A stretch of DNA of 64,000 nt from Alphaproteobacteria bacterium. GTDB taxonomy: Bacteria; Pseudomonadota; Alphaproteobacteria; UBA828. The notes under the pieces are model-generated. The model did not search any database, had not been told where the DNA came from, and saw nothing but the letters and a program-made list of their open reading frames with translations. The stretch lies in contig CAXXMU010000001.1 in NCBI GenBank assembly GCA_963667785.2, positions 256,001 through 320,000 of the forward strand, read 5' to 3'. Below, one piece after another: positions 5,655-27,116 of the stretch. The position numbers were made by a program, and so were the translations under genes. How positions within the stretch are numbered: the first letter of the stretch is position 1; every line of letters starts with the position of its first letter.

Positions 5655-6343
5655 CAGCTCTTCTCCTCCGCCGACTCGTCCGCCTGCGCATCGTCCGCCT
5701 CGCCGGCATCCGCCTCGGTGGCTGCGGGAGCGGCGTCCTCGCTCGCCTTTGCCTTGGCCGTCGTCCGCCGTCGGGTGGCGGTCCGCTTCTTCGCCGCAGG
5801 CTTCTCGGCCGGTGCGGGCGCTTCCGTTGCCGCCGCGGTCTCCGCCTCGGCGGGCGCCGGCGCGTCGTCCCCGGTCTTCGGCGCCTTGGGCGCGGCCCGC
5901 TTCCGTGTCGTCGTTCCGGTTTTCGCCTCGGTCTTCGCCCGCGCCGGCCTCTTCCTCCGGCCGCCGGCCGGCGCCGCCTCGTCGTCGGTCGAGGCCGCCT
6001 TCTTCTTCCGCCGCACCTTCCGCTTCTGGCCCGCCGCCAGGATTTCGTCGATGCGGAGCACGGTCAGGTCCTGCCGGTGCCCGCGCTTGCGGCGGTGGTT
6101 CTTCCGCCGTTTCTTGCGGAAGACGATGATCTTGTCGCCGCGCGTGTGCTCCACCACAGTCGCCGCCACGCGCGCGCCGTCGACGAGCGGCCGCCCCAGC
6201 GAGACGGTCTCGCCGTCGCTCATCGCCAGCACCTCTCCCAGCTCGATCGTCTCGCCGGCCTCGGCCTTGAGACGCTCGACCCGGATAACGTCCTCCGGCG
6301 CGACGCGGTACTGCTTTCCGCCGGTGCGAACCACAGCGAACAT
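5654..6343 (-). CDS. rplU: 50S ribosomal protein L21 with long low-complexity C-terminal extension
   Basis: [33 protein letters not shown]; about 125 extra residues follow. Confidence 0.97.
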
Positions 6344-6390
6344 GGCAACCATCCGTATTGGGAGGAGGGGGCACCCCCCGCAGCGGGCGC

Positions 6391-6418
6391 ACTATAGGCC
6401 CACCGCGGCTGCTGTCAA
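6391..6418 (-). promoter_or_regulatory. Sigma70-type promoter of the rplU-rpmA-obgE operon
   Basis: Minus strand TTGACA-16 nt-TATAGT, about 50 nt upstream of the rplU start. Confidence 0.75.
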
Positions 6419-6455
6419 TCAGCCGCGCCGCCGGCGGGCGGACCAGAAGGGCGGA

Positions 6456-6758
6456 TCAGAAGCCGTGCTTGGCGGCTTCCTCGGCGTACTTGCGCTTCTG
6501 CTCGGGCGTGGCCTCGGTCTGGAAGTGCTCCTTCCACTCGGCGTAGGTCATGCCATAGACGAGTTGGCGCGCCTCCTCGAGATCCATGTCGAGCCCCTTC
6601 TCCTCGGCGGCGGCGCGGTACCATTTGGACAGGCAATTGCGACAGAAGCCCGCGAGGTTCATCAGGTCGATGTTCTGCACGTCCGTGCGCTTGCGCAGGT
6701 GCGCGACCAAGGTGCGGAAGGCCGCAGCCTCCAGCTCGGTCTGGGTCCTATCGTCCAT
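6456..6758 (-). CDS. DUF1244 family protein
   Basis: ELEAAAFRTLVAHLRKRTDVQNIDLMNLAGFCRNCLSKWY. Confidence 0.9.
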   Translation of the reverse strand: MDDRTQTELEAAAFRTLVAHLRKRTDVQNIDLMNLAGFCRNCLSKWYRAAAEEKGLDMDLEEARQLVYGMTYAEWKEHFQTEATPEQKRKYAEEAAKHGF

Positions 6759-7029
6759 CTTCCGTCTCTCCGCCGCCGCCCGCCTCGTCGAGCCTCGCTT
6801 CCAGCGCGGCGACGCGCTCGGCGAGCGCCTCAGCCTCGCTGCGTGCGTTCGCGGCCATCTCCTTGACGGCGTCGAACTCGTCGCGCGGGACCAGGTCCAT
6901 CTGCGCCAGGACCCGCTCCAGCCGGCGCTTGACGAGGGCGTCGAGCTCGCCCTTGAGCCCGCTCGCCGCCCCCATGGCTCCGGTGGCGACGCGGGCCACG
7001 TCGTCGAGAATGTGGCTGTCCGTCTGCAT
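6748..7029 (-). CDS. ubiK: Accessory factor UbiK / BMFP family protein
   Basis: LDDVARVATGA..MDLVPRDEFDAVKEMA followed by a coiled coil. Confidence 0.85.
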   Translation of the reverse strand: MQTDSHILDDVARVATGAMGAASGLKGELDALVKRRLERVLAQMDLVPRDEFDAVKEMAANARSEAEALAERVAALEARLDEAGGGGETEDGR

Positions 7030-7218
7030 CGGCAGTCTCCTCCGGCCGGCGCTCGAGGGATATGACTATCGCGCCGCAAGGCGCGTCGCGTCGCGCGGCC
7101 GCACGCGCAGAGCGCACGTTCGAGCAGACCGAGCGCCGGTGCTTGAGAGATATGAATAAAGCGGCGACCATCGAGGGCGCAAGCCCATGAGACCGCGGCC
7201 CGGAGGAGGGTGCCGGCC

Positions 7219-12963: not shown

Positions 12964-13668
12964 ATGGCTCTCGGCAAGCGGCTTGCGCGCAGCCGGCTCG
13001 GGCTCGCCGCGCTCGCCCGGCTCTACGCCAGCTATACCGGCCTCGTCTTCGCCACGAGCCGCTGGCAGACGCGCGGGCGCGAGGACGCAGACGCCATGCT
13101 GCGGGCTGGCACGCCGTTCATCGCCGCCTTCTGGCACAATCGGCTGATGATGGCGCCGCAGGGCTGGCGGGAGAAGGCGACGATGCACGTCATCATCTCG
13201 CGCCACCGCGATGGCGAGAGCATCGCGCGCGCGGTGCGGCACCTGGGCGTGGCGGCGGTGCGTGGCTCGCGCACGCGGGGCGGCGCCGCGGCGCTGCGCA
13301 CCTCGCTGCGCCTGCTGGAGGAGGGCGGCTATCTCGGCATCACGCCTGACGGGCCGCGCGGCCCCCGAATGCGGGCGCAGCCCGGGATCATCGCCCTGGC
13401 GCGTCTCTCCGGCGCGCCGATCGTGCCCGCCACCTACGCCGTCTCGCGTCGCGTGGTGGCGGACAGCTGGGATCGCTTCGTGATCGCCCTGCCGTTCAGC
13501 CGCGGGGTCTATCTCTGGGGCCAGCCGATTCATGTCGCGGCCGGCGCCGACGACGCTGCCATGGAGCGATCGCGCCTGCTGCTCGAGGAGCGGCTCAACG
13601 CGCTGACCGACGAAGCGGACCGCATGGTCGGCGCGGAGCCGATCGAGCCGGCCGCCGCGAGCGGATGA
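12964..13668 (+). CDS. DUF374 family lipid A secondary acyltransferase (LpxJ-like)
   Basis: FWHNR, ISRHRDGE, VRGS, ITPDGPRGP, WDRFVIALPF; lies between msbA and waaA. Confidence 0.85.
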   Translation: MALGKRLARSRLGLAALARLYASYTGLVFATSRWQTRGREDADAMLRAGTPFIAAFWHNRLMMAPQGWREKATMHVIISRHRDGESIARAVRHLGVAAVRGSRTRGGAAALRTSLRLLEEGGYLGITPDGPRGPRMRAQPGIIALARLSGAPIVPATYAVSRRVVADSWDRFVIALPFSRGVYLWGQPIHVAAGADDAAMERSRLLLEERLNALTDEADRMVGAEPIEPAAASG

Positions 13669-14978
13669 TCGAGGCCCTGATCACGCCGGCAAGCTACCGT
13701 TGTGCGAGCGTGCTTGCGGCGCCGATGGTCCACGCCTGGCTCGCCCATCGGCGCCGCCGCGGCAAGGAGGATCGTGACCGTTTCGGCGAGCGGCTCGGCC
13801 GGCCCGGCCTGGCCCGGCCCGACGGCGCGCTGGTCTGGATGCACGGCGCGAGCGTCGGCGAGGGCCTGTCGCTGCTGCCGCTCGTGACGCGGCTTCGCGA
13901 AGCGCTGCCCGGCGTCGGCGTCCTCGTCACCACCGGCACGGTGACCTCGGCGCGGCTGCTGCGCGAGCGTCTGCCGGCCGGCGTGCTGCACCAGTTCGCG
14001 CCGGTCGACCGGCCGGACGCGGTCCGGCGCTTCCTCGCGCACTGGCGGCCGGCGCTCGCCGTCTGGGTGGAATCGGAGCTCTGGCCCAACCTGATCCTCG
14101 AGACCGCGGCGCGCGGCATCCCCATGCTGCTCGTCAACGGGCGCATGTCCGGCCGCTCCGCCGCGCGCTGGCGGCGGGCGCCGCACCTGAGCGGGCCGCT
14201 GCTCGCCGCCTTCGCCTGCGTGCTGGCGCAAACCGAGGCCGACGCCCGGCGCTTTCGCGCGCTCGGTGCACGCACCGTCGCCGTCCGGGGCAATCTCAAG
14301 AACGATGCGCCGCCGCTGCCGGCGGACGAGCACCTGCTGCAAAGCGCGCGGCAGGCGATGGCCGGCCGGCCCCGCTGGGCGGCCGCGAGCACGCATGACG
14401 GCGAGGAGGAGGCGATTGCGGACGCGCACGCCATCCTGCGCCGGACCGTCCCCGCTCTGCTCACCATCCTCGCGCCCCGCCATCCCGAGCGCGGTGCGGC
14501 CGTTGCCGCCATGCTCGAAGGCCGCGGCCTCACCACTGCCCGGCGATCGGCGAACGAGGCGATCGCGGCGGAGACCGCCGTCTATCTCGTCGACACACTC
14601 GGCGAGCTCGGACTGGTCTACCGCCTCGCCGACATCGCCTTCGTCGGCGGCTCGCTCGCACCCCACGGCGGGCACAATCCGCTGGAGCCGGCGCGTCTCG
14701 ACTGCGCCCTCGTGACCGGCCCCCACACGGAGAACTTCTCCGAGACCTACGCCGCGCTGGAAGACGGCGGCGCCGTCAGCCGGGTGAGCGATGCCGGCAC
14801 GCTGGCCGACGCCGTCGGCACCCTGCTCGACGACGAGACCGCCTGCGCCCGCCGCCGCGCCGCCGCCCGCGAGGCGGCACGGGCGATGGCAGGCGCGGCC
14901 GACGCGGCGCTCGGCCTCATCCGCGACCACCTCGAACCGCGCGGCGGCGATGCGCGCACCGGCGTTCTGGGCGGATGA
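13665..14978 (+). CDS. waaA: 3-deoxy-D-manno-octulosonic acid transferase
   Basis: WMHGASVGE, ESELWPN, ASTHDGEE, APRHPERG, GGHNPLEPA. Confidence 0.96.
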   Translation: MIEALITPASYRCASVLAAPMVHAWLAHRRRRGKEDRDRFGERLGRPGLARPDGALVWMHGASVGEGLSLLPLVTRLREALPGVGVLVTTGTVTSARLLRERLPAGVLHQFAPVDRPDAVRRFLAHWRPALAVWVESELWPNLILETAARGIPMLLVNGRMSGRSAARWRRAPHLSGPLLAAFACVLAQTEADARRFRALGARTVAVRGNLKNDAPPLPADEHLLQSARQAMAGRPRWAAASTHDGEEEAIADAHAILRRTVPALLTILAPRHPERGAAVAAMLEGRGLTTARRSANEAIAAETAVYLVDTLGELGLVYRLADIAFVGGSLAPHGGHNPLEPARLDCALVTGPHTENFSETYAALEDGGAVSRVSDAGTLADAVGTLLDDETACARRRAAAREAARAMAGAADAALGLIRDHLEPRGGDARTGVLGG

Positions 14979-15942
14979 GCGCGGCGGTGCCGCCGCCGCC
15001 GCGCTCGCGCCGCTCTCCTGGCTCTACCGTCTCGCCGCCGAGGCGCGCGCGGGTCTGGCCCGGCCGGAACGCGCCGCCGTGGGCGTGCTCTGCGTCGGCA
15101 ACTTCACGGTGGGCGGCGCCGGCAAGACGCCCACGGTGCTCGCCCTTGCCGCGCTGCTCGCGGAAGACGGGATCCGGCCGCATATCCTCACCCGCGGCTA
15201 TGGGGGGTGCGAGCGCGGGCCGCTCCGGGTCGATCCCGATCGGCATGACGCGCGTGCCGTCGGCGACGAGGCGCTGCTGCTGGCGCGGGCCGCACCCACC
15301 TGGCTATCCCGCGACCGGCCGGCGGGAGCCGCCTCGGCGGCCGCGGCCGGCGCACCGCTCGTGCTCATGGATGACGGCATGCAGTCGCCGGGCCTGGCGA
15401 AGGACATCTGCCTCGCGGTCGTCGATGGCGGCGCAGGCTTCGGCAATGGCCGCCTGCTGCCGGCGGGGCCGTTGCGCGAGCCGCTTGCACGCGGCCTCGG
15501 CCGGGCGCACGCGCTGGTTCTCGTCGGGCCCGACCGGCGGGGCGCGCTCGCCGCGCTCGGCGCGCACGACCTGCCGGTGATCGAGGCGTCGCTGGTGCCG
15601 GGCGAGGAGGTTCGGGCGCTCCGCGAGCGGCCGCTCGTCGCCTTCGCCGGGATCGGGCGGCCCGGCAAGTTCTTCGAGACCCTGGCGGACAGCGGGTGCA
15701 CGGTGATCGCGCGCCATGCCTTCCCCGACCACCACCGCTACACGTCCGGCGAGATCGCGGCCATCGTCGCGCAGGCGAAGGAGCGGGACGCAGTCGCGGT
15801 GACGACCGAGAAGGACCATGTGCGCCTGCCGGCGGAGACGCGCGCGCTGGTGTGCGCGCTGCCCGTGACGCTGGTCTGGCGCGACCCCGCGGAAGCGCGG
15901 GCCCTGCTGGCGCCGCTCGTGGCGCGCTGCCGCCGTGCGTAG
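14950..15942 (+). CDS. lpxK: Tetraacyldisaccharide 4'-kinase
   Basis: VGNFTVGGAGKTP, RGYG, GDEALLL, DDGMQ, LPAGPLRE, TTEKD. Confidence 0.96.
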   Translation: MRAPAFWADERGGAAAAALAPLSWLYRLAAEARAGLARPERAAVGVLCVGNFTVGGAGKTPTVLALAALLAEDGIRPHILTRGYGGCERGPLRVDPDRHDARAVGDEALLLARAAPTWLSRDRPAGAASAAAAGAPLVLMDDGMQSPGLAKDICLAVVDGGAGFGNGRLLPAGPLREPLARGLGRAHALVLVGPDRRGALAALGAHDLPVIEASLVPGEEVRALRERPLVAFAGIGRPGKFFETLADSGCTVIARHAFPDHHRYTSGEIAAIVAQAKERDAVAVTTEKDHVRLPAETRALVCALPVTLVWRDPAEARALLAPLVARCRRA

Positions 15943-16825
15943 GGCGCGGCCGGCGCGCGCCGCGCGGTACCTGTGCGAAGCCGCCGCCGTCGCCACCCTG
16001 CTCGCGTTCTTTCGCATGCTGCCGCTGGACTGGGCATCGGCCCTCGGCGCATGCATCGGGGGTCTGCTGGGGCCGGCGCTTCCGGTGCACCGGCGCGGCC
16101 TCGAGAACATGGCCCGGGCGCTGCCGGAGCTCTCCGAGGCCGAGGTTCGGGCTTGCGCGCGGCGCATGTGGCGCCATCTCGGCCGCACCGCCGCGGAATA
16201 CCCGCATCTCCGGCGCTTCTCGATCGAGAGGTCAGACGGACGGGTCGAGCTAGTCGGCCGCGACAATCTGGAGGAAGCCCGGCGCTCGCCCACGGGCGGG
16301 ATCTTCGTCACCGGCCACATCGGCAATTGGGAGCTCACCGTGCTTCCGGCGGAGCAGACCGGCATCCCGCTTGCCACCGTCTACCGGACGGCAAACAACC
16401 CGATCGTGGACCGAATGATCCAGCGGCTGAGGAGCGGGGTCGGGCAGCTCTACCTGCCCAAGGGCGCGAGCGGCGCCCGCGAGATGGTGCGCGCGCTCGG
16501 GGCGGGCAAGCACCTCCTTCTCCTGGTGGATCAGAAGCTCAACACCGGCATACCGGTGCCGTTCTTCGGTCGCGATGCCATGACCCCGCCTGCGGTGGCG
16601 GCGCTCGCGCTCAAGTACGACTGCCCGCTCTGGCCGCTTCGGGTCGAGCGGCTGAAGGGCGCGACCTTCCGCGTGACCGTGCTGCCTAAGCTCGCCATCC
16701 CGGAGGCCGGCACCCGGGAGGAACGCATCCGCGTCATCATGGTCGCCATCAACGCCACGCTCGAAGGCTGGATCCGCGAGCGGCCCGAGCAGTGGCTGTG
16801 GCTCCACCGGCGCTGGCCGGACTGA
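15935..16825 (+). CDS. Lipid A lauroyl/acyltransferase (LpxL/HtrB family)
   Basis: GHIGNWE, DQK, PFFG, PEQWLWLHRRW. Confidence 0.93.
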   Translation: MRRARPARAARYLCEAAAVATLLAFFRMLPLDWASALGACIGGLLGPALPVHRRGLENMARALPELSEAEVRACARRMWRHLGRTAAEYPHLRRFSIERSDGRVELVGRDNLEEARRSPTGGIFVTGHIGNWELTVLPAEQTGIPLATVYRTANNPIVDRMIQRLRSGVGQLYLPKGASGAREMVRALGAGKHLLLLVDQKLNTGIPVPFFGRDAMTPPAVAALALKYDCPLWPLRVERLKGATFRVTVLPKLAIPEAGTREERIRVIMVAINATLEGWIRERPEQWLWLHRRWPD

Positions 16826-19735: not shown

Positions 19736-21382
19736 ATGGCCATGCCGTCGTCACAGGAAGCCCCCGGAAGCCACCGGCGCGTCGCAGCGGAAGCGGACGT
19801 CGATGCGGTCGTCGTCGGCGCCGGCTTCGCGGGCCTCTACATGCTCCATCGGCTGCGCGCGATGGGGCTCCGGGTGCGCGTCTTCGAGAAGGGCGACGGG
19901 GTCGGCGGCACCTGGTACTGGAACCGCTATCCCGGCGCCCGTTGCGACACCGACAGCGTCGAATACTCCTACCAGTTCTCCGACGCGCTGCAGCAGGAGT
20001 GGCGTTGGACCGAGCGCTTCGCGACGCAACCGGAGATCCTGCGCTATCTGGAGCATGTCGCCGACCGCTTCGACCTTCGCCGCGACATCGCGTTCGGCAC
20101 CACCGTCACCGAGGCGGCGTTCGACGATGCGGCGGGATGCTGGCGGATCGCGACCGACGACGGCGCCAGGCTTTCCGCCACCTACTGTGTCATGGCCACC
20201 GGCTGCCTTTCTGCCGTCAACCGGCCGGCGTTCGACGGACTCGATCGCTTCGCCGGCGCCTGGTACCACACCGGCGCCTGGCCCCATGACGAGGTATCCT
20301 TCGCCGGCCAGCACGTCGGCGTCGTCGGCACCGGCTCGTCGGCCATTCAAGCGATTCCGCTGATCGCAGCCGAGGCGCGCCACCTCACCGTCTTCCAGCG
20401 CCAGGCGAACTACACCGTACCCGCCCGAAACGCGCCGCTGGACGAGGCCGAGTACGCCGCCATCAGGGAGAGCTACGGGGAGCTGCGGCGCCAGGCGAGC
20501 GAGACGCCGACCGGCTGCTGGTGGGCCGTGAACCAGGCGGCGGCGGAAGAGATGAGCGCCGAGGAGCGAGAGCGGGAGCTCGAAGCCCGCTGGCAGGTCG
20601 GCGGGCTCCGCATGTACGGCGTCTTCAAGGACGTGCTGGTCAACGGCGAGGCGAACGACATCGCGGCCTCGTTCATCCGCGACAAGATCCGCGCCCAGGT
20701 CCGCGATCCCGAGGTGGCGGCGCTGCTCTCGCCGCACTCCTATGTCGGCTGCAAGCGCATCTGCCTCGATACCGACTACTACGCCACCTTCAACCGGCCC
20801 AACGTGACGTTGGTGGACATCAGCGAGGCGCCGATCGAGGAAATCACGCCCACCGGGCTGCGCTCCGGCGGCAGGCACTATGCACTCGACGCGATCGTCT
20901 TCGCGACCGGATACGACGCGATGACGGGGCCCCTGTTCAGGATCGACATCCGCGGCCGGGGCGGGAGGACGCTGAAGGCGACGTGGGCCGACGGCCCCCG
21001 CACCTATCTCGGCCTCGCCGTCGAAGGCTTCCCCAACCTGTTCACCATCACGGGCCCCACCAGCCCCTCGGTGCTCACCAACATGGTCCCGGCCATCGAG
21101 CAGCATGCGGAGTGGATCGCCGGCTGCATCGCGCACGCGCGCGGCACGGGCCGCCCGTGCATCGAGGCGAGCCGCGCGGCGGAGGATGCATGGATGGCCC
21201 ACCACGAGGAGGTGGCGGGGGGCACCCTCTTCCCCTCCTGCAACTCCTGGTATGTCGGCGCCAACGTCGACGGCAAGCCGCGCCGCGTGATGCCCTACAC
21301 CGGCGGCTTTCCGGACTATGTCGCGACGTGCGACGCGGTGGCCGCCAGCGGCTACGAGGGGTTCACGCTGACCGCCGCATGA
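19736..21382 (+). CDS. Type I Baeyer-Villiger monooxygenase (cyclohexanone monooxygenase-like)
   Basis: GAGFAG, GGTWYWNRYPGARCD, fingerprint FAGAWYHTGAWP, GTGSSA, GCKR, ATGYDA. Confidence 0.95.
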   Translation: MAMPSSQEAPGSHRRVAAEADVDAVVVGAGFAGLYMLHRLRAMGLRVRVFEKGDGVGGTWYWNRYPGARCDTDSVEYSYQFSDALQQEWRWTERFATQPEILRYLEHVADRFDLRRDIAFGTTVTEAAFDDAAGCWRIATDDGARLSATYCVMATGCLSAVNRPAFDGLDRFAGAWYHTGAWPHDEVSFAGQHVGVVGTGSSAIQAIPLIAAEARHLTVFQRQANYTVPARNAPLDEAEYAAIRESYGELRRQASETPTGCWWAVNQAAAEEMSAEERERELEARWQVGGLRMYGVFKDVLVNGEANDIAASFIRDKIRAQVRDPEVAALLSPHSYVGCKRICLDTDYYATFNRPNVTLVDISEAPIEEITPTGLRSGGRHYALDAIVFATGYDAMTGPLFRIDIRGRGGRTLKATWADGPRTYLGLAVEGFPNLFTITGPTSPSVLTNMVPAIEQHAEWIAGCIAHARGTGRPCIEASRAAEDAWMAHHEEVAGGTLFPSCNSWYVGANVDGKPRRVMPYTGGFPDYVATCDAVAASGYEGFTLTAA

Positions 21383-21473: not shown

Positions 21474-21914
21474 TTAACCCTCCCCGCGCCGTCCCGGCGG
21501 GGGCTCGCAGGGCTCGGTGCCCATGTCGGCGGGCACGGAAATCTCGATCAGGTCGAACGTGTCGGAGGTGGCGATCTCGTTGTGCGGCGTGCCGCCGGGG
21601 ATGTAGAGGGAATCCCCTTCCTCGATGCGGATGGTCTCGTCCTCGAAGGCGAGGTCGATCCAGCCGCTCAGCATGTAGACGATCTGCCCCTCGCAGATGT
21701 GTGTGTGCCAGCCCGTGGGCCGGGTGAGCCCGGCCTTGGCCGAGGTGATCTGGGCGCGGATGCGTCCGTCGCTCGCCGCCGTGATGCCGAGGTCGCGGTA
21801 GGTGAGGAAGTCGCGCCTTCCCGGCATGAAGGTGGGGTCGTCCTTCCTGACCAGTGTGAAGGGTGGCTGCCGCTCGTCCGGGCCTAGCGCCGTCGCCGCC
21901 TGAGCCTTGGTCAT
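21474..21914 (-). CDS. Cupin domain protein
   Basis: GWHTH..Q..YMLSG and GDSLYIPGGTPHNE cupin motifs. Confidence 0.9.
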   Translation of the reverse strand: MTKAQAATALGPDERQPPFTLVRKDDPTFMPGRRDFLTYRDLGITAASDGRIRAQITSAKAGLTRPTGWHTHICEGQIVYMLSGWIDLAFEDETIRIEEGDSLYIPGGTPHNEIATSDTFDLIEISVPADMGTEPCEPPPGRRGEG

Positions 21915-22017: not shown

Positions 22018-23469
22018 TCACGACGGATAGATTGCGCGGCGCAGGGTCTCGGCGATCGCGCCCACCACCGGGCCGAAGGCCTGGCACTGGCCCGGATCCG
22101 GCACGATCTCCCGGACCTCCGCCTCGAGCCCGGCCAGCGGCGGCGGAGCGGGCCGGCCGGTGACGTCGAGCGCGCGGAGCGCAATCGGCACGAGGCCGGC
22201 GAGCGCCATGTCGAGGCAGCGCCCGGCGCGATCCTGCTTGGACCATGCCATGAACACGGGGCTCGCCACGTCGTTCTGGCCGAAGCCGCCCGATTCGCTG
22301 CCGGGGAGCAGCGTCGCCTGGGCGTAGAGCCGGGCCTCCTCCTCGTAGCCGGTCTGGGCCATCGGCACGCATCCCAGGTAGGTGCGGGGCGCATCGTCGC
22401 CGCCATCCGGGTCGCGCAGCTGATCGGGAAGCAGCGAGACGTTGCCGTCCAGGAGCTTCGCGCCGTGCCGCTCGGCAAGGACGCAGAGATTGGCGCACGC
22501 GGCGCTCAGCGCGTCCATGGCGAGCACCGCGTGGGGGTTGTGATAGCCGCCGTTCGTCACGAAGCGGCCGAAGGGGTGATCCTCGTCCGAATCCTCGATC
22601 CATACCGGGTTGTCGGTCACGGCCTGAAGGGATTCCGCGGCGACCTCCGCAGCCAGGGAGGCCGCGCGCCGGGCCTGGCTGAGCATGCGCGGAAGGATGC
22701 GGTAGCTGACCGGCGCCTGGTAGGGGCGCCGGTCGCCGCCGTGACCGTCCCCCACCAGCGCGCGCAGGCGATCGAGCGCCCAGCGGTCGTGGGGGTTGTT
22801 CCAGTACGCGCCAAGGGCGGCGTCGAGATGGCAGAGCGGCGCGTTGAAGGCCTCGAAGGAGAGCGCGAATACGCTGGCCGCCACGTCGAGACGGCTCTCC
22901 GCGACGAGCGCTGCATCGGTGACGAGGCCCGTGGCCGCCGGCGAGCCGTTGAGCAGGCACATCACGTCCTTGATCGCAGGCTCCGCCCCCTCCGCCAGAT
23001 CGGTGAACAGGTGCCCCAGCGAGAGGATCTCGCCCGCGCCGCCCTGGCCCCGCGCCGGGACCACGGGCATCGGGCGCCCGTCCAGCATGGCGGCGACGCG
23101 CTGCGCGATCTCCGGCGAAACGGCGGCCTCGCCTTCCACGAAGTTGGTCAGGCGCGCGAGCACGATCGCGCGCACGACGCGTTCCGGCAGCGGATCGCCC
23201 CACGACGTCGCCACCCGCGCCGGCGACATGCCGGCCCATCGCTCGCGCTGTTCGGGCGTCAACGCCTGCCGCGCGAGCTGGCCCGGACCCGTCGTCACGC
23301 CGTAGATGGTGACCTCGGGGTCATGCTCGATGATGCGCTCCAGGCGCTCCCGGCCCCGCGCCATGGCCGCGAGCGCGCCGGCGCCGAGCTCCACGCCTTC
23401 ACCCTCCCACGCCACCCGGCGGGCGGCATCGAGCGTGAAGTCGGCACGGGTTTCCACGAGTACCGTCAT
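22018..23469 (-). CDS. Aromatic amino acid ammonia-lyase (HAL/PAL) superfamily protein lacking the MIO tripeptide
   Basis: IYGVTTGPG, LLNGS, YQAPVSYR, VTDNP, NGGYH, QNDVAS; the MIO loop reads GQGGAGEI. Confidence 0.85.
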   Translation of the reverse strand: MTVLVETRADFTLDAARRVAWEGEGVELGAGALAAMARGRERLERIIEHDPEVTIYGVTTGPGQLARQALTPEQRERWAGMSPARVATSWGDPLPERVVRAIVLARLTNFVEGEAAVSPEIAQRVAAMLDGRPMPVVPARGQGGAGEILSLGHLFTDLAEGAEPAIKDVMCLLNGSPAATGLVTDAALVAESRLDVAASVFALSFEAFNAPLCHLDAALGAYWNNPHDRWALDRLRALVGDGHGGDRRPYQAPVSYRILPRMLSQARRAASLAAEVAAESLQAVTDNPVWIEDSDEDHPFGRFVTNGGYHNPHAVLAMDALSAACANLCVLAERHGAKLLDGNVSLLPDQLRDPDGGDDAPRTYLGCVPMAQTGYEEEARLYAQATLLPGSESGGFGQNDVASPVFMAWSKQDRAGRCLDMALAGLVPIALRALDVTGRPAPPPLAGLEAEVREIVPDPGQCQAFGPVVGAIAETLRRAIYPS

Positions 23470-23524: not shown

Positions 23525-24094
23525 CTAGCGCGCCTGCCGGCGCTTGGCCTCCTCGAGCTGGGCCTCGGTGTACTGGATGCCGATCAGCGTCTCGTAGGCG
23601 AGTGCGCTCTCGCCGGGCCTGAGCGGGATCCACTGAGCGACGTACTCCACCGTCTCGGCGCCCGTGGCCTCGTCGTCGAAGGCGATCTCCGCCGTGAAGA
23701 TCTCCTTGGCGACGATGCGGCGCCCGCCGTCGGTCAGCGCGACGAAATAGGGCGCGCTGACGCTGTCCGCGGTTGCGGCCGGCCCCCGCGTCGCACGGAT
23801 GGGCAGGGAGAACGCCACCTCGACGCTGCCGCTGCCGTCCTCGTCGATGGCGTAATCGCAGCGCTCGCTCGCCTCGCGGAGCTCCACCTCGAAGGCCACG
23901 TCGGCCTCCTCGCGCCCCGGCCCCTCGCCGTAGAGGGTGAGCACGCGTGCCTGCTGGAGGACGCTGACGCGGGGACACGGCGGAGAGTCGTCCAGGATGC
24001 CGCATCCGGCGAGCGCGCCCAGCATGGCTGCGCCGAGCAGCGGCGCAGCGAAGGCCGCCGGGCTACGCTGTCGCCTGCCCGTTCCGGTACTCAC
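23525..24094 (-). CDS. Hypothetical lipoprotein
   Basis: Lipobox LAGC followed by PPCPRV; GGAG SD before GTG at 24094. Confidence 0.75.
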   Translation of the reverse strand: MSTGTGRRQRSPAAFAAPLLGAAMLGALAGCGILDDSPPCPRVSVLQQARVLTLYGEGPGREEADVAFEVELREASERCDYAIDEDGSGSVEVAFSLPIRATRGPAATADSVSAPYFVALTDGGRRIVAKEIFTAEIAFDDEATGAETVEYVAQWIPLRPGESALAYETLIGIQYTEAQLEEAKRRQAR

Positions 24095-24120
24095 GGGAAC
24101 TCCGCCGCGAAAGGGAGAGA

Positions 24121-24524: not shown

Positions 24525-25547
24525 ATGACAGCCGAACCGAGTTTCGTCGAGCTGATCGGCAAGACGCCGCTGATCCGTCTGCACGGCCCCTCCGAGGCGA
24601 CCGGCTGCGAGATCCTCGGCAAGTGCGAGTTCCTGAACCCCGGCGGCTCGGTCAAGGACCGGGCGGCGCTCTTCATAGTGCGCGACGCCGAGAAGCGCGG
24701 CGTCCTCAGGCCCGGCGGCACCATCGTCGAAGGCACCGCCGGCAACACCGGCATCGGGCTCGCGCTGGTCGGCAACGCCCTCGGCTACCGCTCGGTGATC
24801 GTGATTCCGGAGACCCAGAGCCAGGAAAAGAAGGACATGCTGCGGCTCTGCGGCGCCCGGCTCATCGAGGTGCCGGCGGTCCCCTACCGCGACCCGAACA
24901 ACTACGTGAAGTACTCGGGCCGGCTCGCCGACGAGCTCGCCGAGACGGAGCCCAACGGCGCGATCTGGGCCAACCAGTTCGACAATGTGGCCAACCGCCA
25001 GGGCCATGTGGAGACGACCGGGCCCGAGATATGGGAGCAGACCGGCGGCGGGATCGACGGCTTCATCTGCGCGGTCGGCACCGGCGGCACCCTCGCCGGC
25101 GTCGGCATGGCGCTCAAGGAGCGCAAGCCCTCGGTGACGATCGGCCTGGCCGATCCCATGGGGGCTGCGCTCTACAACCACTACGCCCACGGCGAGTTGA
25201 AGGCGGAGGGCAGCTCGATCACCGAGGGGATCGGCCAGGGCCGGATCACCGCCAATCTGGAAGACGCGCCGATCGACGTGCCGTTCCAGATTCCGGACGA
25301 GGAGGCGCTGCCGGCGATCTTCGATCTGGCGCAGAACGAGGGCCACATCATGGGCGGCTCCACCGGAATCAACGTGGCCGGCGCGATCCGCCTGGCCAGG
25401 GAGATGGGCCCGGGCCACACCATCGTCACCGTGCTCTGCGACTACGGAACCCGCTACTTCAGCAAGCTCTTCAACCCCGCATTCCTGCGCGAGCGCGGCC
25501 TGCCGGTGCCGCCCTGGCTCGATGACGCCCGTGACGCCGCCGACTGA
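24525..25547 (+). CDS. cysK: Cysteine synthase A
   Basis: KCEFLNPGGSVKDR, EGTAGNTG, GTGGT, EGIG. Confidence 0.93.
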   Translation: MTAEPSFVELIGKTPLIRLHGPSEATGCEILGKCEFLNPGGSVKDRAALFIVRDAEKRGVLRPGGTIVEGTAGNTGIGLALVGNALGYRSVIVIPETQSQEKKDMLRLCGARLIEVPAVPYRDPNNYVKYSGRLADELAETEPNGAIWANQFDNVANRQGHVETTGPEIWEQTGGGIDGFICAVGTGGTLAGVGMALKERKPSVTIGLADPMGAALYNHYAHGELKAEGSSITEGIGQGRITANLEDAPIDVPFQIPDEEALPAIFDLAQNEGHIMGGSTGINVAGAIRLAREMGPGHTIVTVLCDYGTRYFSKLFNPAFLRERGLPVPPWLDDARDAAD

Positions 25548-26253
25548 GCCGCTCTTTCGCACAAACCCCTACGCGCGCACCTGCGAGGCGCAGGTCGGCA
25601 CGCCGGCCCCCGGCGCGGTGCGGCTGGACCGCACGGTCTTCTATCCCGAGGGCGGCGGCCAGCCGGGCGACAGCGGGGTCCTGCGCGCCGCCGACGGCAG
25701 CGAGATCGCGGTGCACGGCACGCGCAAGGGCGAGGCCGCCGGCGACATCCTGCACCTCGTCGATCCCGATGCGGCCGTGCCCGCTCCGGGGAGCAGCGTG
25801 GTCGCCGAGCTCGACTGGGAGCGTCGCCACCGCCACATGCGCATGCATACCTGCCTGCATCTGCTGAGCGCCGTGATCGACGCGCCGGTGACCGGCGGGC
25901 AGCTCACGGCGGAGAAGGGGCGCCTCGACTTCGATCTCGACACCAGGCTGGAGAAGGCGGCCGTCGAGGAGGCGCTCAACGCGCTCATCGCACGCGACCT
26001 GCCGGTCGCGGCACGCTGGATCAGCGACGAATCGCTCGCCGCGCAGCCGGAGCTGGTGAAGACCATGCGAGTGAAGCCGCCCGCCGGCCAGGGCCGGGTG
26101 AGGCTGATCGACGTGGACGGCGTCGACCTCCAGCCCTGCGGCGGCACCCATGTGGCGCGAACGGGCGAGATCGGGCCGGTCGTCGTGCGCAAGATCGAGA
26201 GCAAGGGCCGCCACAACCGGCGCGTCGTCCTCGTCTTCGGAGACGCATCGTGA
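25522..26253 (+). CDS. AlaX-type alanyl-tRNA editing protein
   Basis: FYPEGGGQPGD, MRMHTCLH (HxxxH), QPCGGTH (CxxxH). Confidence 0.93.
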   Translation: MTPVTPPTEPLFRTNPYARTCEAQVGTPAPGAVRLDRTVFYPEGGGQPGDSGVLRAADGSEIAVHGTRKGEAAGDILHLVDPDAAVPAPGSSVVAELDWERRHRHMRMHTCLHLLSAVIDAPVTGGQLTAEKGRLDFDLDTRLEKAAVEEALNALIARDLPVAARWISDESLAAQPELVKTMRVKPPAGQGRVRLIDVDGVDLQPCGGTHVARTGEIGPVVVRKIESKGRHNRRVVLVFGDAS

Positions 26254-27116
26254 GCGCGGGCGATGCGCCGCTCGTCGTGAGCACCGCCTGGCTCGCCGCC
26301 AATGGCGCCGCCGGCAGCGACGTGCGGATCCTCGACGGCTCCTGGCACCTGCCGCCGCTGGCGCGCGACCCGGCCGCCGAGTTCCGCGAGGCGCACATTC
26401 CGGGCGCCGCCTTCTTCGATATCGACGGCATCTGCGATCCCGACTCCTCGCTGCCGCACATGCTGCCCCGGGCGGCGGATTTCGCCGCCGCCGTCTCGGC
26501 GCTCGGGATCGGCAACGCCTCGCACGTCGTCGTCTACGACACCGTGGGGCTCTACAGCGCCGCGCGCGTCTGGTGGATGTTCCGCGTCTTCGGGCACGGG
26601 CGCGTCTCGGTGCTCGCGGGCGGCCTGCCGCGCTGGCGGGCGGAGGGCCGGCCCGTGGAGAGCGGGGAGCCCGCGATCGCGGCGGGAGCGTTCGCGGCGA
26701 CCTACGACGGGACGCTGGTCCGCTCGTTCGAGCAGGTCCGCGCCACCCTCGAGTCGGGCGACGCGCAGATCGTGGACGCGCGTGCCGCCGCGCGCTTCAG
26801 CGGCGAGGATCCGGGGCCGAGGCCCGACCTTCCGCGCGGCCACATTCCCGGCAGTCGCAACGTGCCCTTCGACGCGGTGCTCGACGATGACGCCGCCGCG
26901 CTGGGCGAGGCGGCGGCGATCCGCCGGGCGTTCGCCGCCGCCGGCGTCGACCCCGCCCGCCCGGTCATCGCCACGTGCGGATCGGGCATCACTGCGTGTA
27001 CGCTGGCGCTCGCGCTCGCCGCCATCGGTGCCGAGCAGGTTGCCGTCTACGACGGCTCCTGGACCGATTGGGGCAGTCGCGCGGACGCGCCAGTGGAGAG
27101 CGGGGGAGCAGTCTAG
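26250..27116 (+). CDS. sseA: 3-mercaptopyruvate sulfurtransferase
   Basis: HIPGA, SAARVWWM, active-site CGSGITAC, YDGSWTDW. Confidence 0.95.
   Translation: MSAGDAPLVVSTAWLAANGAAGSDVRILDGSWHLPPLARDPAAEFREAHIPGAAFFDIDGICDPDSSLPHMLPRAADFAAAVSALGIGNASHVVVYDTVGLYSAARVWWMFRVFGHGRVSVLAGGLPRWRAEGRPVESGEPAIAAGAFAATYDGTLVRSFEQVRATLESGDAQIVDARAAARFSGEDPGPRPDLPRGHIPGSRNVPFDAVLDDDAAALGEAAAIRRAFAAAGVDPARPVIATCGSGITACTLALALAAIGAEQVAVYDGSWTDWGSRADAPVESGGAV

Follow-up and report, generated by a model that had tools for sequence, protein, structure and literature searches.

How might an enzyme of the histidine ammonia-lyase/phenylalanine ammonia-lyase (HAL/PAL) superfamily work once the residues that form its cofactor are gone, and on which substrate? 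The cofactor 4-methylideneimidazole-5-one (MIO) is regarded as the hallmark of this superfamily, and loss of the MIO serine cripples HAL. The only MIO-less exceptions that we know of are a few trimethylammonia-lyases, which still keep their histidine-binding residues. The question is raised by a gene, here called X (protein P0001), that lies in a 64,000-nucleotide stretch of contig CAXXMU010000001.1 from an alphaproteobacterial genome; we refer to this whole stretch as the window. X belongs to a conserved clade in which both the MIO triad and the histidine-binding residues are replaced, and close relatives of X occupy the position of hutH in hut operons. Our preferred explanation, which we put forward tentatively, is that X acts without a cofactor as a lyase on a histidine betaine, hercynine for instance, from which it would split off a methylated amine to leave urocanate.

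Sequence features of X

X is an uninterrupted frame of 483 codons (translation of 22018-23469, minus strand), and its GC contents by codon position (0.75/0.54/0.89) are typical of real genes in this window of 72% GC. Pfam family PF00221 matches X at E 5e-55 (187.5 bits vs a gathering score of 27.3), in two stretches with the break at the MIO site, and the HutH equivalog model TIGR01225 gives 127 bits, under its cut-off of 539.15. X is the only PF00221 gene in the window's genome. The canonical HutH of a related genome (locus L083), together with distant relatives, served as the reference for pairing the motifs, which are placed as follows:

22018..23469, minus strand: X, a MIO-less PF00221 lyase of 483 amino acids (stop-free open reading frame with a PF00221 match)
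23281..23307, minus strand: catalytic Tyr loop IYGVTTGPG, residues 55-63, with Tyr56; aligns with VYGVNTGFG of HutH
23026..23049, minus strand: GQGGAGEI, residues 141-148, in place of the MIO-forming GSVGASGDL (alignment with HutH and distant relatives)
22945..22950, minus strand: Asn174-Gly175 (NG) (HutH alignment; invariant in 79 core relatives)
22699..22719, minus strand: QAPVSYR, residues 251-257, with the putative carboxylate binders Gln251 and Arg257 (HutH alignment, conservation)
22606..22614, minus strand: Asp286-Asn287-Pro288 (DNP) (HutH alignment; invariant in 79 core relatives)
22540..22557, minus strand: TNGGYH, residues 305-310, in place of SGGNFH (HutH alignment, conservation)
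22261..22296, minus strand: ESGGFGQNDVAS, residues 392-403, with four residues inserted relative to HutH and QND for QED

The original prediction, made from the letters of the window, had described a HAL/PAL-superfamily lyase without the MIO motif. Every motif that it quoted falls at the residues it gave, including the loop at residues 141-148 (nt 23049-23026), Q..SYR at residues 251-257 and QNDVAS at residues 398-403. Alignment with the L083 HutH pairs GSVGASGDL with GQ-GGAGEI, SGGNFH with TNGGYH, and QEDHVS (DKEDHVS in L083) with QNDVAS, and it bears out the claim that the loop of X lacks the Ser and is one residue shorter. A better alignment places the gap before the triad, so that Ala-Ser-Gly corresponds to Gly144-Ala145-Gly146. 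Judged from this alignment, X is the natural equivalent of a Ser-to-Ala exchange at the MIO serine combined with an Ala-to-Gly exchange just before it, and MIO cannot form in X by the known route of Ala-Ser-Gly dehydration, as had been proposed.

The residues that bind histidine in HAL are replaced as well. The imidazole-binding His of the SH motif in HutH corresponds to Val86/Ala87 in X (RVAT replaces LSHA), and the QEDH motif (KEDH in L083), which carries the imidazole-binding Glu, reads QNDV. Numbered as in Pseudomonas putida HAL, where we take the relevant residues to be His83, Asn195, Tyr280, Phe329 and Glu414, Asn195 is equivalent to Asn174 of X, Tyr280 to Val254, Phe329 to Tyr309, and Glu414 to Asn399. 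Relative to HAL, the pocket of X gains Trp90, Tyr309 and Phe396. About 23 residues are deleted after the loop compared with HutH, and four are inserted before QND. The first residues of X, judged by eye, contain no signal peptide.

A conserved clade without MIO

We asked how widely this unusual combination of motifs is conserved. A word-indexed search for relatives scored 8000 candidates, 1934 of them at E ≤ 0.001; among the best 120 of these 1934, nearly all are 480-490 amino acids long, and those with a named source come from Alphaproteobacteria. When the representatives clustered at 50% identity were searched exhaustively, 2919 matched at E ≤ 0.001 and 185 at E ≤ 1e-30. The closest relatives of X come from metagenome-assembled genomes (MAGs) of Alphaproteobacteria and Rhodospirillales, several of them labelled as sponge bins.

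In a core family set of 79 sequences, which are 55-89% identical, 78 of the 483 positions are invariant. G143, G144, G146 and I148 of the loop are invariant, A145 and E147 each occur in 78 of the 79, and Gly-Ala-Gly stands at the triad position in 78 of the 79. Also invariant are Y56, G57, G61 and G63 of the Tyr loop; N174; Q251, A252, P253, V254, S255 and R257; D286-P288, N287 included; and G307, G308 and H310 of TNGGYH, in which Y309 is kept by 75 of the 79. The earlier statement that the catalytic Tyr, NG, DNP and Q..SYR are retained thus holds for X, and the key residues hold across the whole core family. A loop that is invariant or nearly so in 79 relatives argues for a conserved enzyme, and the sequences clearly point to purifying selection on X. 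Two readings that the original prediction had named as fatal to it are ruled out: a relic or pseudogene by the intact frame, the 78 invariant positions and the width of the family; and an ordinary histidase by the score of 127 bits vs the 539-bit cut-off and the replacement of the MIO triad and the imidazole binders.

Beyond the core, motifs were tabulated in 68 representatives of at least 430 amino acids and 26-51% identity, in none of which the nine-residue GS[VL]GASGDL occurs. The clade is marked by a loop of the form G-x-G-x-[AGSP]-G-[ED]-[IV], by QAPVS[YFW]R and by GG[YF]HN; X has all three, together with full-length similarity. Ser-Gly-Glu is found at the loop in 10 of the 68, and in three of these ten the full reading is Ala-Ser-Gly-Glu (P0130, P0131, P0168). 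The imidazole-binding His and Glu are absent from X and from every clade member examined. ESM Atlas yields only "aromatic amino acid lyase" clusters for X, and NCBIfam reports no model for the MIO-less lyases that we queried, NF058533 being unrelated. Among the literature listings and passages that we consulted, none gives an account of the clade or of a MIO-less enzyme in a hut operon.

An AlphaFold2 model of X, built from a 51-row alignment, has a mean pLDDT (predicted local distance difference test) of 94.3 and a pTM (predicted template modelling score) of 0.94. Foldseek and VIA-align both identify the HAL fold. The top structural match is the ergothionase of Treponema denticola (6s7j; Z 38.0, root-mean-square deviation 2.2 Å over 465 residues, 18% identity), followed by tyrosine aminomutase (TAM; Z 37.9) and P. 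putida HAL (1b8f; Z 37.2-37.3). Since these scores are tied at Z 37-38, structure does not separate ergothionase from HAL or TAM. The clade profile scores 129 bits on 6s7j vs 165-196 bits on HALs and TAMs, and a phmmer search with P0001 does not list 6s7j at E ≤ 0.001. In terms of sequence, X is no closer to the T. denticola ergothionase than to HALs. Because of this, and because the His and Glu are gone, we place X in a large uncharacterised MIO-less clade and not among the ergothionases. The suggestion that X may represent a new subfamily is partly supported: the clade appears to stand apart from the solved ergothionase in score and, going by a preprint on the ergothionase residues, in the loss of His and Glu.

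Relatives of X in hut operons

To identify shared neighbors of X, we clustered the open reading frames of 80 related loci de novo. The recurring partners include hutU (five loci), an ornithine cyclodeaminase (OCD)/mu-crystallin gene (three), OpuAC and trimethylamine monooxygenase (Tmm) genes (two) and an aldehyde dehydrogenase gene (six, one lineage); the remaining neighbors are only lineage-specific or housekeeping genes.

Among these partners, hutU provides the one coherent context. X directly follows it, in the order hutC-hutU-X, in L014, L019, L026, L029 and L035, and also in the separately fetched L102 (G013:C53). hutI, hutF and hutG are found nearby in L014, L019, L029 and L102, and within the sequence stretch examined L026 and L035 show only hutC, hutU and X. 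In L035 the stop codon of hutU overlaps the start of X as GTGA. The neighbors are true hut genes: hutU scores 948-950 bits on TIGR01228 and falls under both thiourocanate-hydratase cut-offs, hutI scores 452 bits, and hutF 536-600 bits.

The six hut-linked relatives are 76-78% identical to X. In a tree of 89 sequences with support from the Shimodaira-Hasegawa-like approximate likelihood ratio test, they fall within one 11-row subclade (support 99) and X of the window in a separate 10-row subclade (support 99), both inside a 34-row clade (support 100). Their putative active-site residues are the same as those of X, save for W90S/D92E/S89C in L019 and L029. Among the five hut-linked genomes found first, G001, G003, G004 and G005 have no second PF00221 gene. 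A further genome, G006, has a full hut cluster and no hutH, and its sole copy, located elsewhere, belongs to the subclade of the window's X. This link to urocanase and the hut operon, which is absent from the original prediction, narrows the likely substrate to a histidine derivative.

Co-occurrence with urocanase and hutH

We then compared gene content across genomes. Our carrier set comprised 55 genomes, the first five hut-linked ones and 50 more. Urocanase is present in 41 of them (5/5 and 36/50), and a canonical hutH over the cut-off in 28 (G002 and 27/50). Twelve of the 41 urocanase-bearing carriers have no canonical hutH (G001, G003, G004, G005, G006, G013, G020, G021, G025, G036, G043 and G053). 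Two carriers are ambiguous, G023 with a partial hutH match and G035 with a 384-bit HAL-like gene, and in G031 hutH is split across two contig ends.

The baseline was a sample of 200 genomes from Alphaproteobacteria, each with a completeness of 90% or more; the window's genome, where hutU is missing, brings the number to 201. hutU occurs in 52, and 48 of these 52 have hutH over the cut-off. Of the 45 urocanase-bearing non-carriers, three are without a canonical hutH. One is G086, where a HAL-like gene scores 401 bits; the others are G119 and G192, the latter with stops in its hutU. Scoring seven candidates per genome, we found a clade member in eight of the 200 genomes; hutU is present in seven of these eight vs 45 of the 192 others.

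We note that many Alphaproteobacteria carry an extra full-length HAL-like paralogue that scores 350-400 bits on TIGR01225, below the cut-off (e.g., G027:C1:1559522-1561006, G035:C1:1277027-1278511 and G086:C1:818866-820317). In G035 and G086 it is the sole HAL-like gene beside hutU.

Other genomic contexts

A second link to the urocanase family comes from G147, a 2.7-Mb genome of 100% completeness, which holds about fifteen clade paralogues, arranged in tandem with as many as five or six to an array (L112, 4178-14460; L113, 2107-10985; L114; L115; L120; L121) and at least six urocanase paralogues, several of which score as S-methyl thiourocanate hydratase. One operon is headed by such a hydratase (891 bits, cut-off 880) and ends in five MIO-less paralogues, with an S-methyl-thiohydantoin-desulfurase-like gene in between (409 bits, cut-off 450). 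The arrays look like a specialization on many histidine-derived betaines. In the paralogues of this operon the His is also gone and N or D stands at the Glu position, so an imidazole substrate is still compatible with the loss of those residues.

G147 contains two further arrangements with other PF00221 genes. At L116:4814-11000, a PF00221 protein in which GSVGASGDL, SH and QEDH are intact comes ahead of clustered genes for thiourocanate hydratase (963 bits) and thiohydantoin desulfurase (599 bits). This protein is not a MIO-less ergothionase and may deaminate unmethylated 2-thiohistidine; its frame, 628 amino acids as called, probably starts too early. At L119:5442-8506 lie two tandem PF00221 paralogues of a third kind, in which the loop reads GM-GMDGE and HTD replaces QED, adjoined by an OCD/mu-crystallin gene and an MFS transporter gene.

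The third link runs through a shared partner. In L044 (3526-4527), L052 (5977-6975) and L069 (2-622), X is preceded at a distance of about 25 bp by a co-oriented OCD/mu-crystallin gene. A copy 52-54% identical to it stands beside hutU in L107 of G020 (6033-7190), further copies are near hutU in L108 (4525-5727) and L122 (3328-4353), and the copy beside the two MIO-less PF00221 paralogues of L119 is 63-66% identical.

In two closely related loci, L024 (5875-10573) and L036 (746-4789), X lies between a gene for an OpuAC-type binding protein and a convergent tmm, which scores 835 bits vs a cut-off of 675 and is a genuine trimethylamine monooxygenase gene. Another part of the window's genome (C2:494409-494936) encodes an orthologue of the OpuAC protein with 70% identity. 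In four relatives, a benzoate-dioxygenase-like Rieske system lies about 0.5-2 kb upstream of X. AbiEi/AbiEii toxin-antitoxin and PIN-domain genes are inserted between the two (L010:5838-6902, L011:2885-3685 and L011:8481-8864), which argues against a single operon. Proteins of family PF12974 (phosphonate-binding-like) overlap the start of X at L017:6198-7004 and L018:5853-7004, and paralogous proteins flank hutU in the same genomes (L107:7954-8766 and L108:10515-11369); the two groups are 25-31% identical, a weak hint only.

Proposed reaction and alternatives

We considered four explanations of these findings, beginning with the one that we favor, a lyase acting on a histidine betaine. X would be a cytoplasmic enzyme of the HAL fold, presumably a homotetramer like others of that fold, carrying out an alpha,beta-elimination without MIO. 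Tyr56 would take the beta-proton; Asn174, Gln251, Arg257 and Asn287 would hold the alpha-carboxylate; and the small Gly-Gly-Ala-Gly loop with the conserved Glu147 would free the space of MIO for a bulky cationic leaving group. The substrate may be an N-alpha-methylated histidine, hercynine first, although the less methylated N-alpha-methyl-histidine would also fit. The products from hercynine would be urocanate and trimethylamine, with urocanate entering the ordinary hut pathway in some relatives. For X we infer the substrate and its leaving group, as well as the oligomeric state and what each residue does.

Three lines of reasoning lead to this scheme. First, the catalytic base and the carboxylate cradle are intact, which suggests that elimination chemistry is retained, and trimethylamine is a good leaving group, which would make MIO dispensable. 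Second, three kinds of context (the adjacency to hutU, an OCD partner in common and the arrays of G147) jointly indicate that the clade makes urocanate-type products. Third, given the link of the core family with true HutU, the simplest substrate is hercynine or an N-alpha-methyl-histidine carrying fewer methyl groups. The original prediction had called for a substrate with a good leaving group, either a betaine or a sulfonium compound. A betaine remains the best guess, by analogy and from the context of the relatives, and nothing points to a sulfonium compound.

Several observations weigh against a histidine betaine as the substrate. To our knowledge, no clade member has a measured activity. 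The most widespread partner of X occurs in at most 11 of the 80 loci, and context is otherwise highly variable. Many of the carrier genomes counted above are MAGs of unknown completeness, several being chromosome-level, and kin are not independent counts. Tmm is present in 24 of the 55 carriers and adjoins X only in L024 and L036; among nine searched genomes of the window's 10-row subclade, none has Tmm and only G006 and G013 have urocanase. We therefore see no association of Tmm with X beyond lineage. In the window's own genome (98.1% complete, 6.6% contamination), searches found no urocanase-family gene, hutI, hutC, trimethylamine monooxygenase or EgtD. Hence, known routes would offer no use there for the urocanate or the trimethylamine that a hercynine lyase releases, yet X is intact and conserved. 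No reading fits this absence well. Finally, the imidazole-binding His and Glu that HutH shares, according to a preprint, with ergothionase and the histidine-betaine lyase are Val/Ala and Asn in X.

That last point also counts for the first alternative, in which X is a cofactor-free lyase for a non-imidazole compound, such as the betaine of an aromatic or aliphatic amino acid, or some other alpha-substituted acid that is activated. The loss of all HAL imidazole binders and the gain of Trp90, Tyr309 and Phe396 in the pocket would follow directly, as would the absence from the window's genome of every urocanate-pathway gene searched for; the Rieske system upstream in four relatives and the wide variation in context fit as well. 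We regard this alternative as rather unlikely, however. It makes the hut neighborhood of one subclade a lineage-specific accident, when the urocanase family is linked to the clade in three separate ways (adjacent genes, the OCD partner in common and the arrays of G147) and carriers show an enrichment of urocanase-bearing genomes. The tabulated active-site residues match between hut-linked and other copies, apart from W90S/D92E/S89C in L019 and L029, and the Rieske loci hold toxin-antitoxin genes in between.

The hut operons themselves admit another interpretation, namely that X is a genuine L-histidine ammonia-lyase without MIO, a paralogue that displaced HutH in some lineages. X fills the hutH slot in otherwise complete hut operons of genomes without canonical hutH, G006 combines a full hut cluster and no hutH with only a copy of the window's subclade elsewhere, and histidine is a far commoner nutrient than hercynine. 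The absence of urocanase and Tmm from the window's genome and most of its subclade also favors this interpretation over a histidine-betaine lyase: ammonia release would still pay there, as the sole purpose of the enzyme, and trimethylamine release would not. The catalysis would have to be of a new cofactor-free kind, or draw on an electrophile made by oxidizing the Gly-Ala-Gly loop. Chemical precedent is lacking, removal of the MIO Ser being crippling to HAL, and the HAL residues that bind histidine are gone, the imidazole binders His and Glu as well as Tyr280 being replaced; for these two reasons we consider the interpretation unlikely. In addition, 27 of the 50 further carriers keep a canonical hutH, which would make X redundant there, and every characterised MIO-less member needs a trimethylammonium group according to the preprints. 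The boldest form of this interpretation, in which a MIO-independent HAL deaminating plain L-histidine replaced HutH in the hut operon of a marine/sponge-associated alphaproteobacterial lineage, is equally unlikely.

Very unlikely, lastly, is that X is no lyase at all. It could then be a binding protein, isomerize an acrylate such as urocanate, or build from the Gly-Ala-Gly loop a different cofactor of its own, which might depend on oxygen. The strict conservation of the loop is also compatible with a structural role or with post-translational modification, and the activity of clade members is not on record, but the catalytic Tyr and all carboxylate binders are invariant, the signature of elimination chemistry.

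A histidine-betaine lyase therefore stays our preferred reading, and its consequences depend on the substrate. If X acts on hercynine or a related betaine, marine and sponge-associated Alphaproteobacteria would have a cytoplasmic route by which histidine betaines enter the hut pathway, and X could be a source of trimethylamine. Should X act on histidine itself, the view that elimination of ammonia from histidine needs MIO would be overturned. In either case, a large conserved clade (185 representatives at E ≤ 1e-30) lacks both MIO and the histidine-binding residues, is tied to urocanase-type genes in three ways and stands in for HutH in one lineage, and the labels "aromatic amino acid lyase" and "histidine ammonia-lyase" now in use mislead.

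Neighborhood of X in the window

The genes next to X in the window are the following:

21474..21914, minus strand: Cupin_2 gene, 146 amino acids, 103 bp downstream of X (Pfam E 3.6e-11)
23525..24100, minus strand: open reading frame 55 bp upstream of X, C-terminal part of about 190 amino acids, small-lipoprotein-like with an LAGC lipobox; start uncertain
19736-21382, plus strand: Baeyer-Villiger-type flavin monooxygenase gene, 548 amino acids, convergent with the cupin gene; syntenic in the four closest relatives only

This neighborhood recurs in only four of the 80 loci (L002, L006, L008 and L015). The co-oriented downstream cupin noted in the original prediction is real and has HxH...E and H metal motifs, but a functional link to X is weak: one promoter-like site lies between the two genes, and they are syntenic in only those four loci, all close kin. 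We reject the cupin as a functional partner of X. The upstream frame, kept at 61-65% identity in the four syntenic loci only, has no Pfam or NCBIfam match. The flavin monooxygenase scores 34 bits vs the 675-bit cut-off for trimethylamine monooxygenase and is rejected as such; it reaches 290 bits on the pentalenolactone D synthase model, far under that model's cut-off.

Farther away, three co-oriented sulfur-related genes, divergent from X, lie at 24525-27116 on the plus strand and encode cysteine synthase A (564 bits), an AlaXM-like tRNA-editing protein (215 bits, sub-cut-off) and 3-mercaptopyruvate sulfurtransferase. For lipid A, genes kdtA and lpxK and one for a late acyltransferase (LpxL) follow one another at 13665-16825 on the plus strand; the source is a Gram-negative bacterium. 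As called from the first ATG, kdtA and lpxK share about 190 bp, so one of the two starts is probably wrong.

Comparison with known lyases

With HutH (TIGR01225; P. putida 1b8f), X shares the fold, the Tyr loop, the Asn/Gln/Arg carboxylate binders and DNP, and relatives of X occupy the hutH position in six loci. It differs in lacking Ala-Ser-Gly, in its shorter loop and deletion of about 23 residues, and in the replacement of His83, Tyr280, Phe329 and Glu414. The same holds more broadly for the MIO-dependent lyases and aminomutases (HAL, PAL, TAM, tyrosine ammonia-lyase and phenylalanine aminomutase), with which X has the Tyr and the carboxylate binders in common but not the Ala-Ser-Gly (or Thr/Cys-Ser-Gly) triad.

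The closest mechanistic parallels are MIO-less enzymes described in two bioRxiv preprints (10.1101/2025.08.13.670108, 10.64898/2026.04.22.720169). Swoo_3913 of Shewanella woodyi is a histidine betaine (hercynine) trimethylammonia-lyase, and SO_3057/SO_3299 of S. oneidensis are MIO-less PF00221 enzymes. According to the preprints, the characterised members all need a trimethylammonium group and split trimethylamine off a histidine betaine, and the substrates named are ergothioneine, hercynine and N-pi-methyl-hercynine. Td_ETL and Swoo_3913 are stated to retain the His and Glu that bind the imidazole nitrogens. The ergothionase of T. denticola (6s7j) resembles X in its HAL fold and, according to the preprints, in the absence of MIO and the use of a Tyr base; by the same account it keeps the His and Glu imidazole binders and has a thiolate-binding Lys384, whereas in X the His is replaced by Val/Ala and the Glu by Asn.

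The Shewanella enzymes, as described there, are likewise MIO-less PF00221 proteins with urocanate or a derivative as product, which is what the hutU neighborhood implies for X. They are periplasmic and coupled to flavocytochrome c reductases for anaerobic respiration. In contrast, X has no signal peptide, has lost the His and Glu binders and is linked, where it is linked, to the cytoplasmic hut pathway. By analogy, X would work most like the trimethylammonia-lyases but lacks one feature that they are described as retaining, the His and Glu. What is new here are the links of the clade to hutU, to OCD and to the thiourocanate pathway, and the pattern of hutH replacement.

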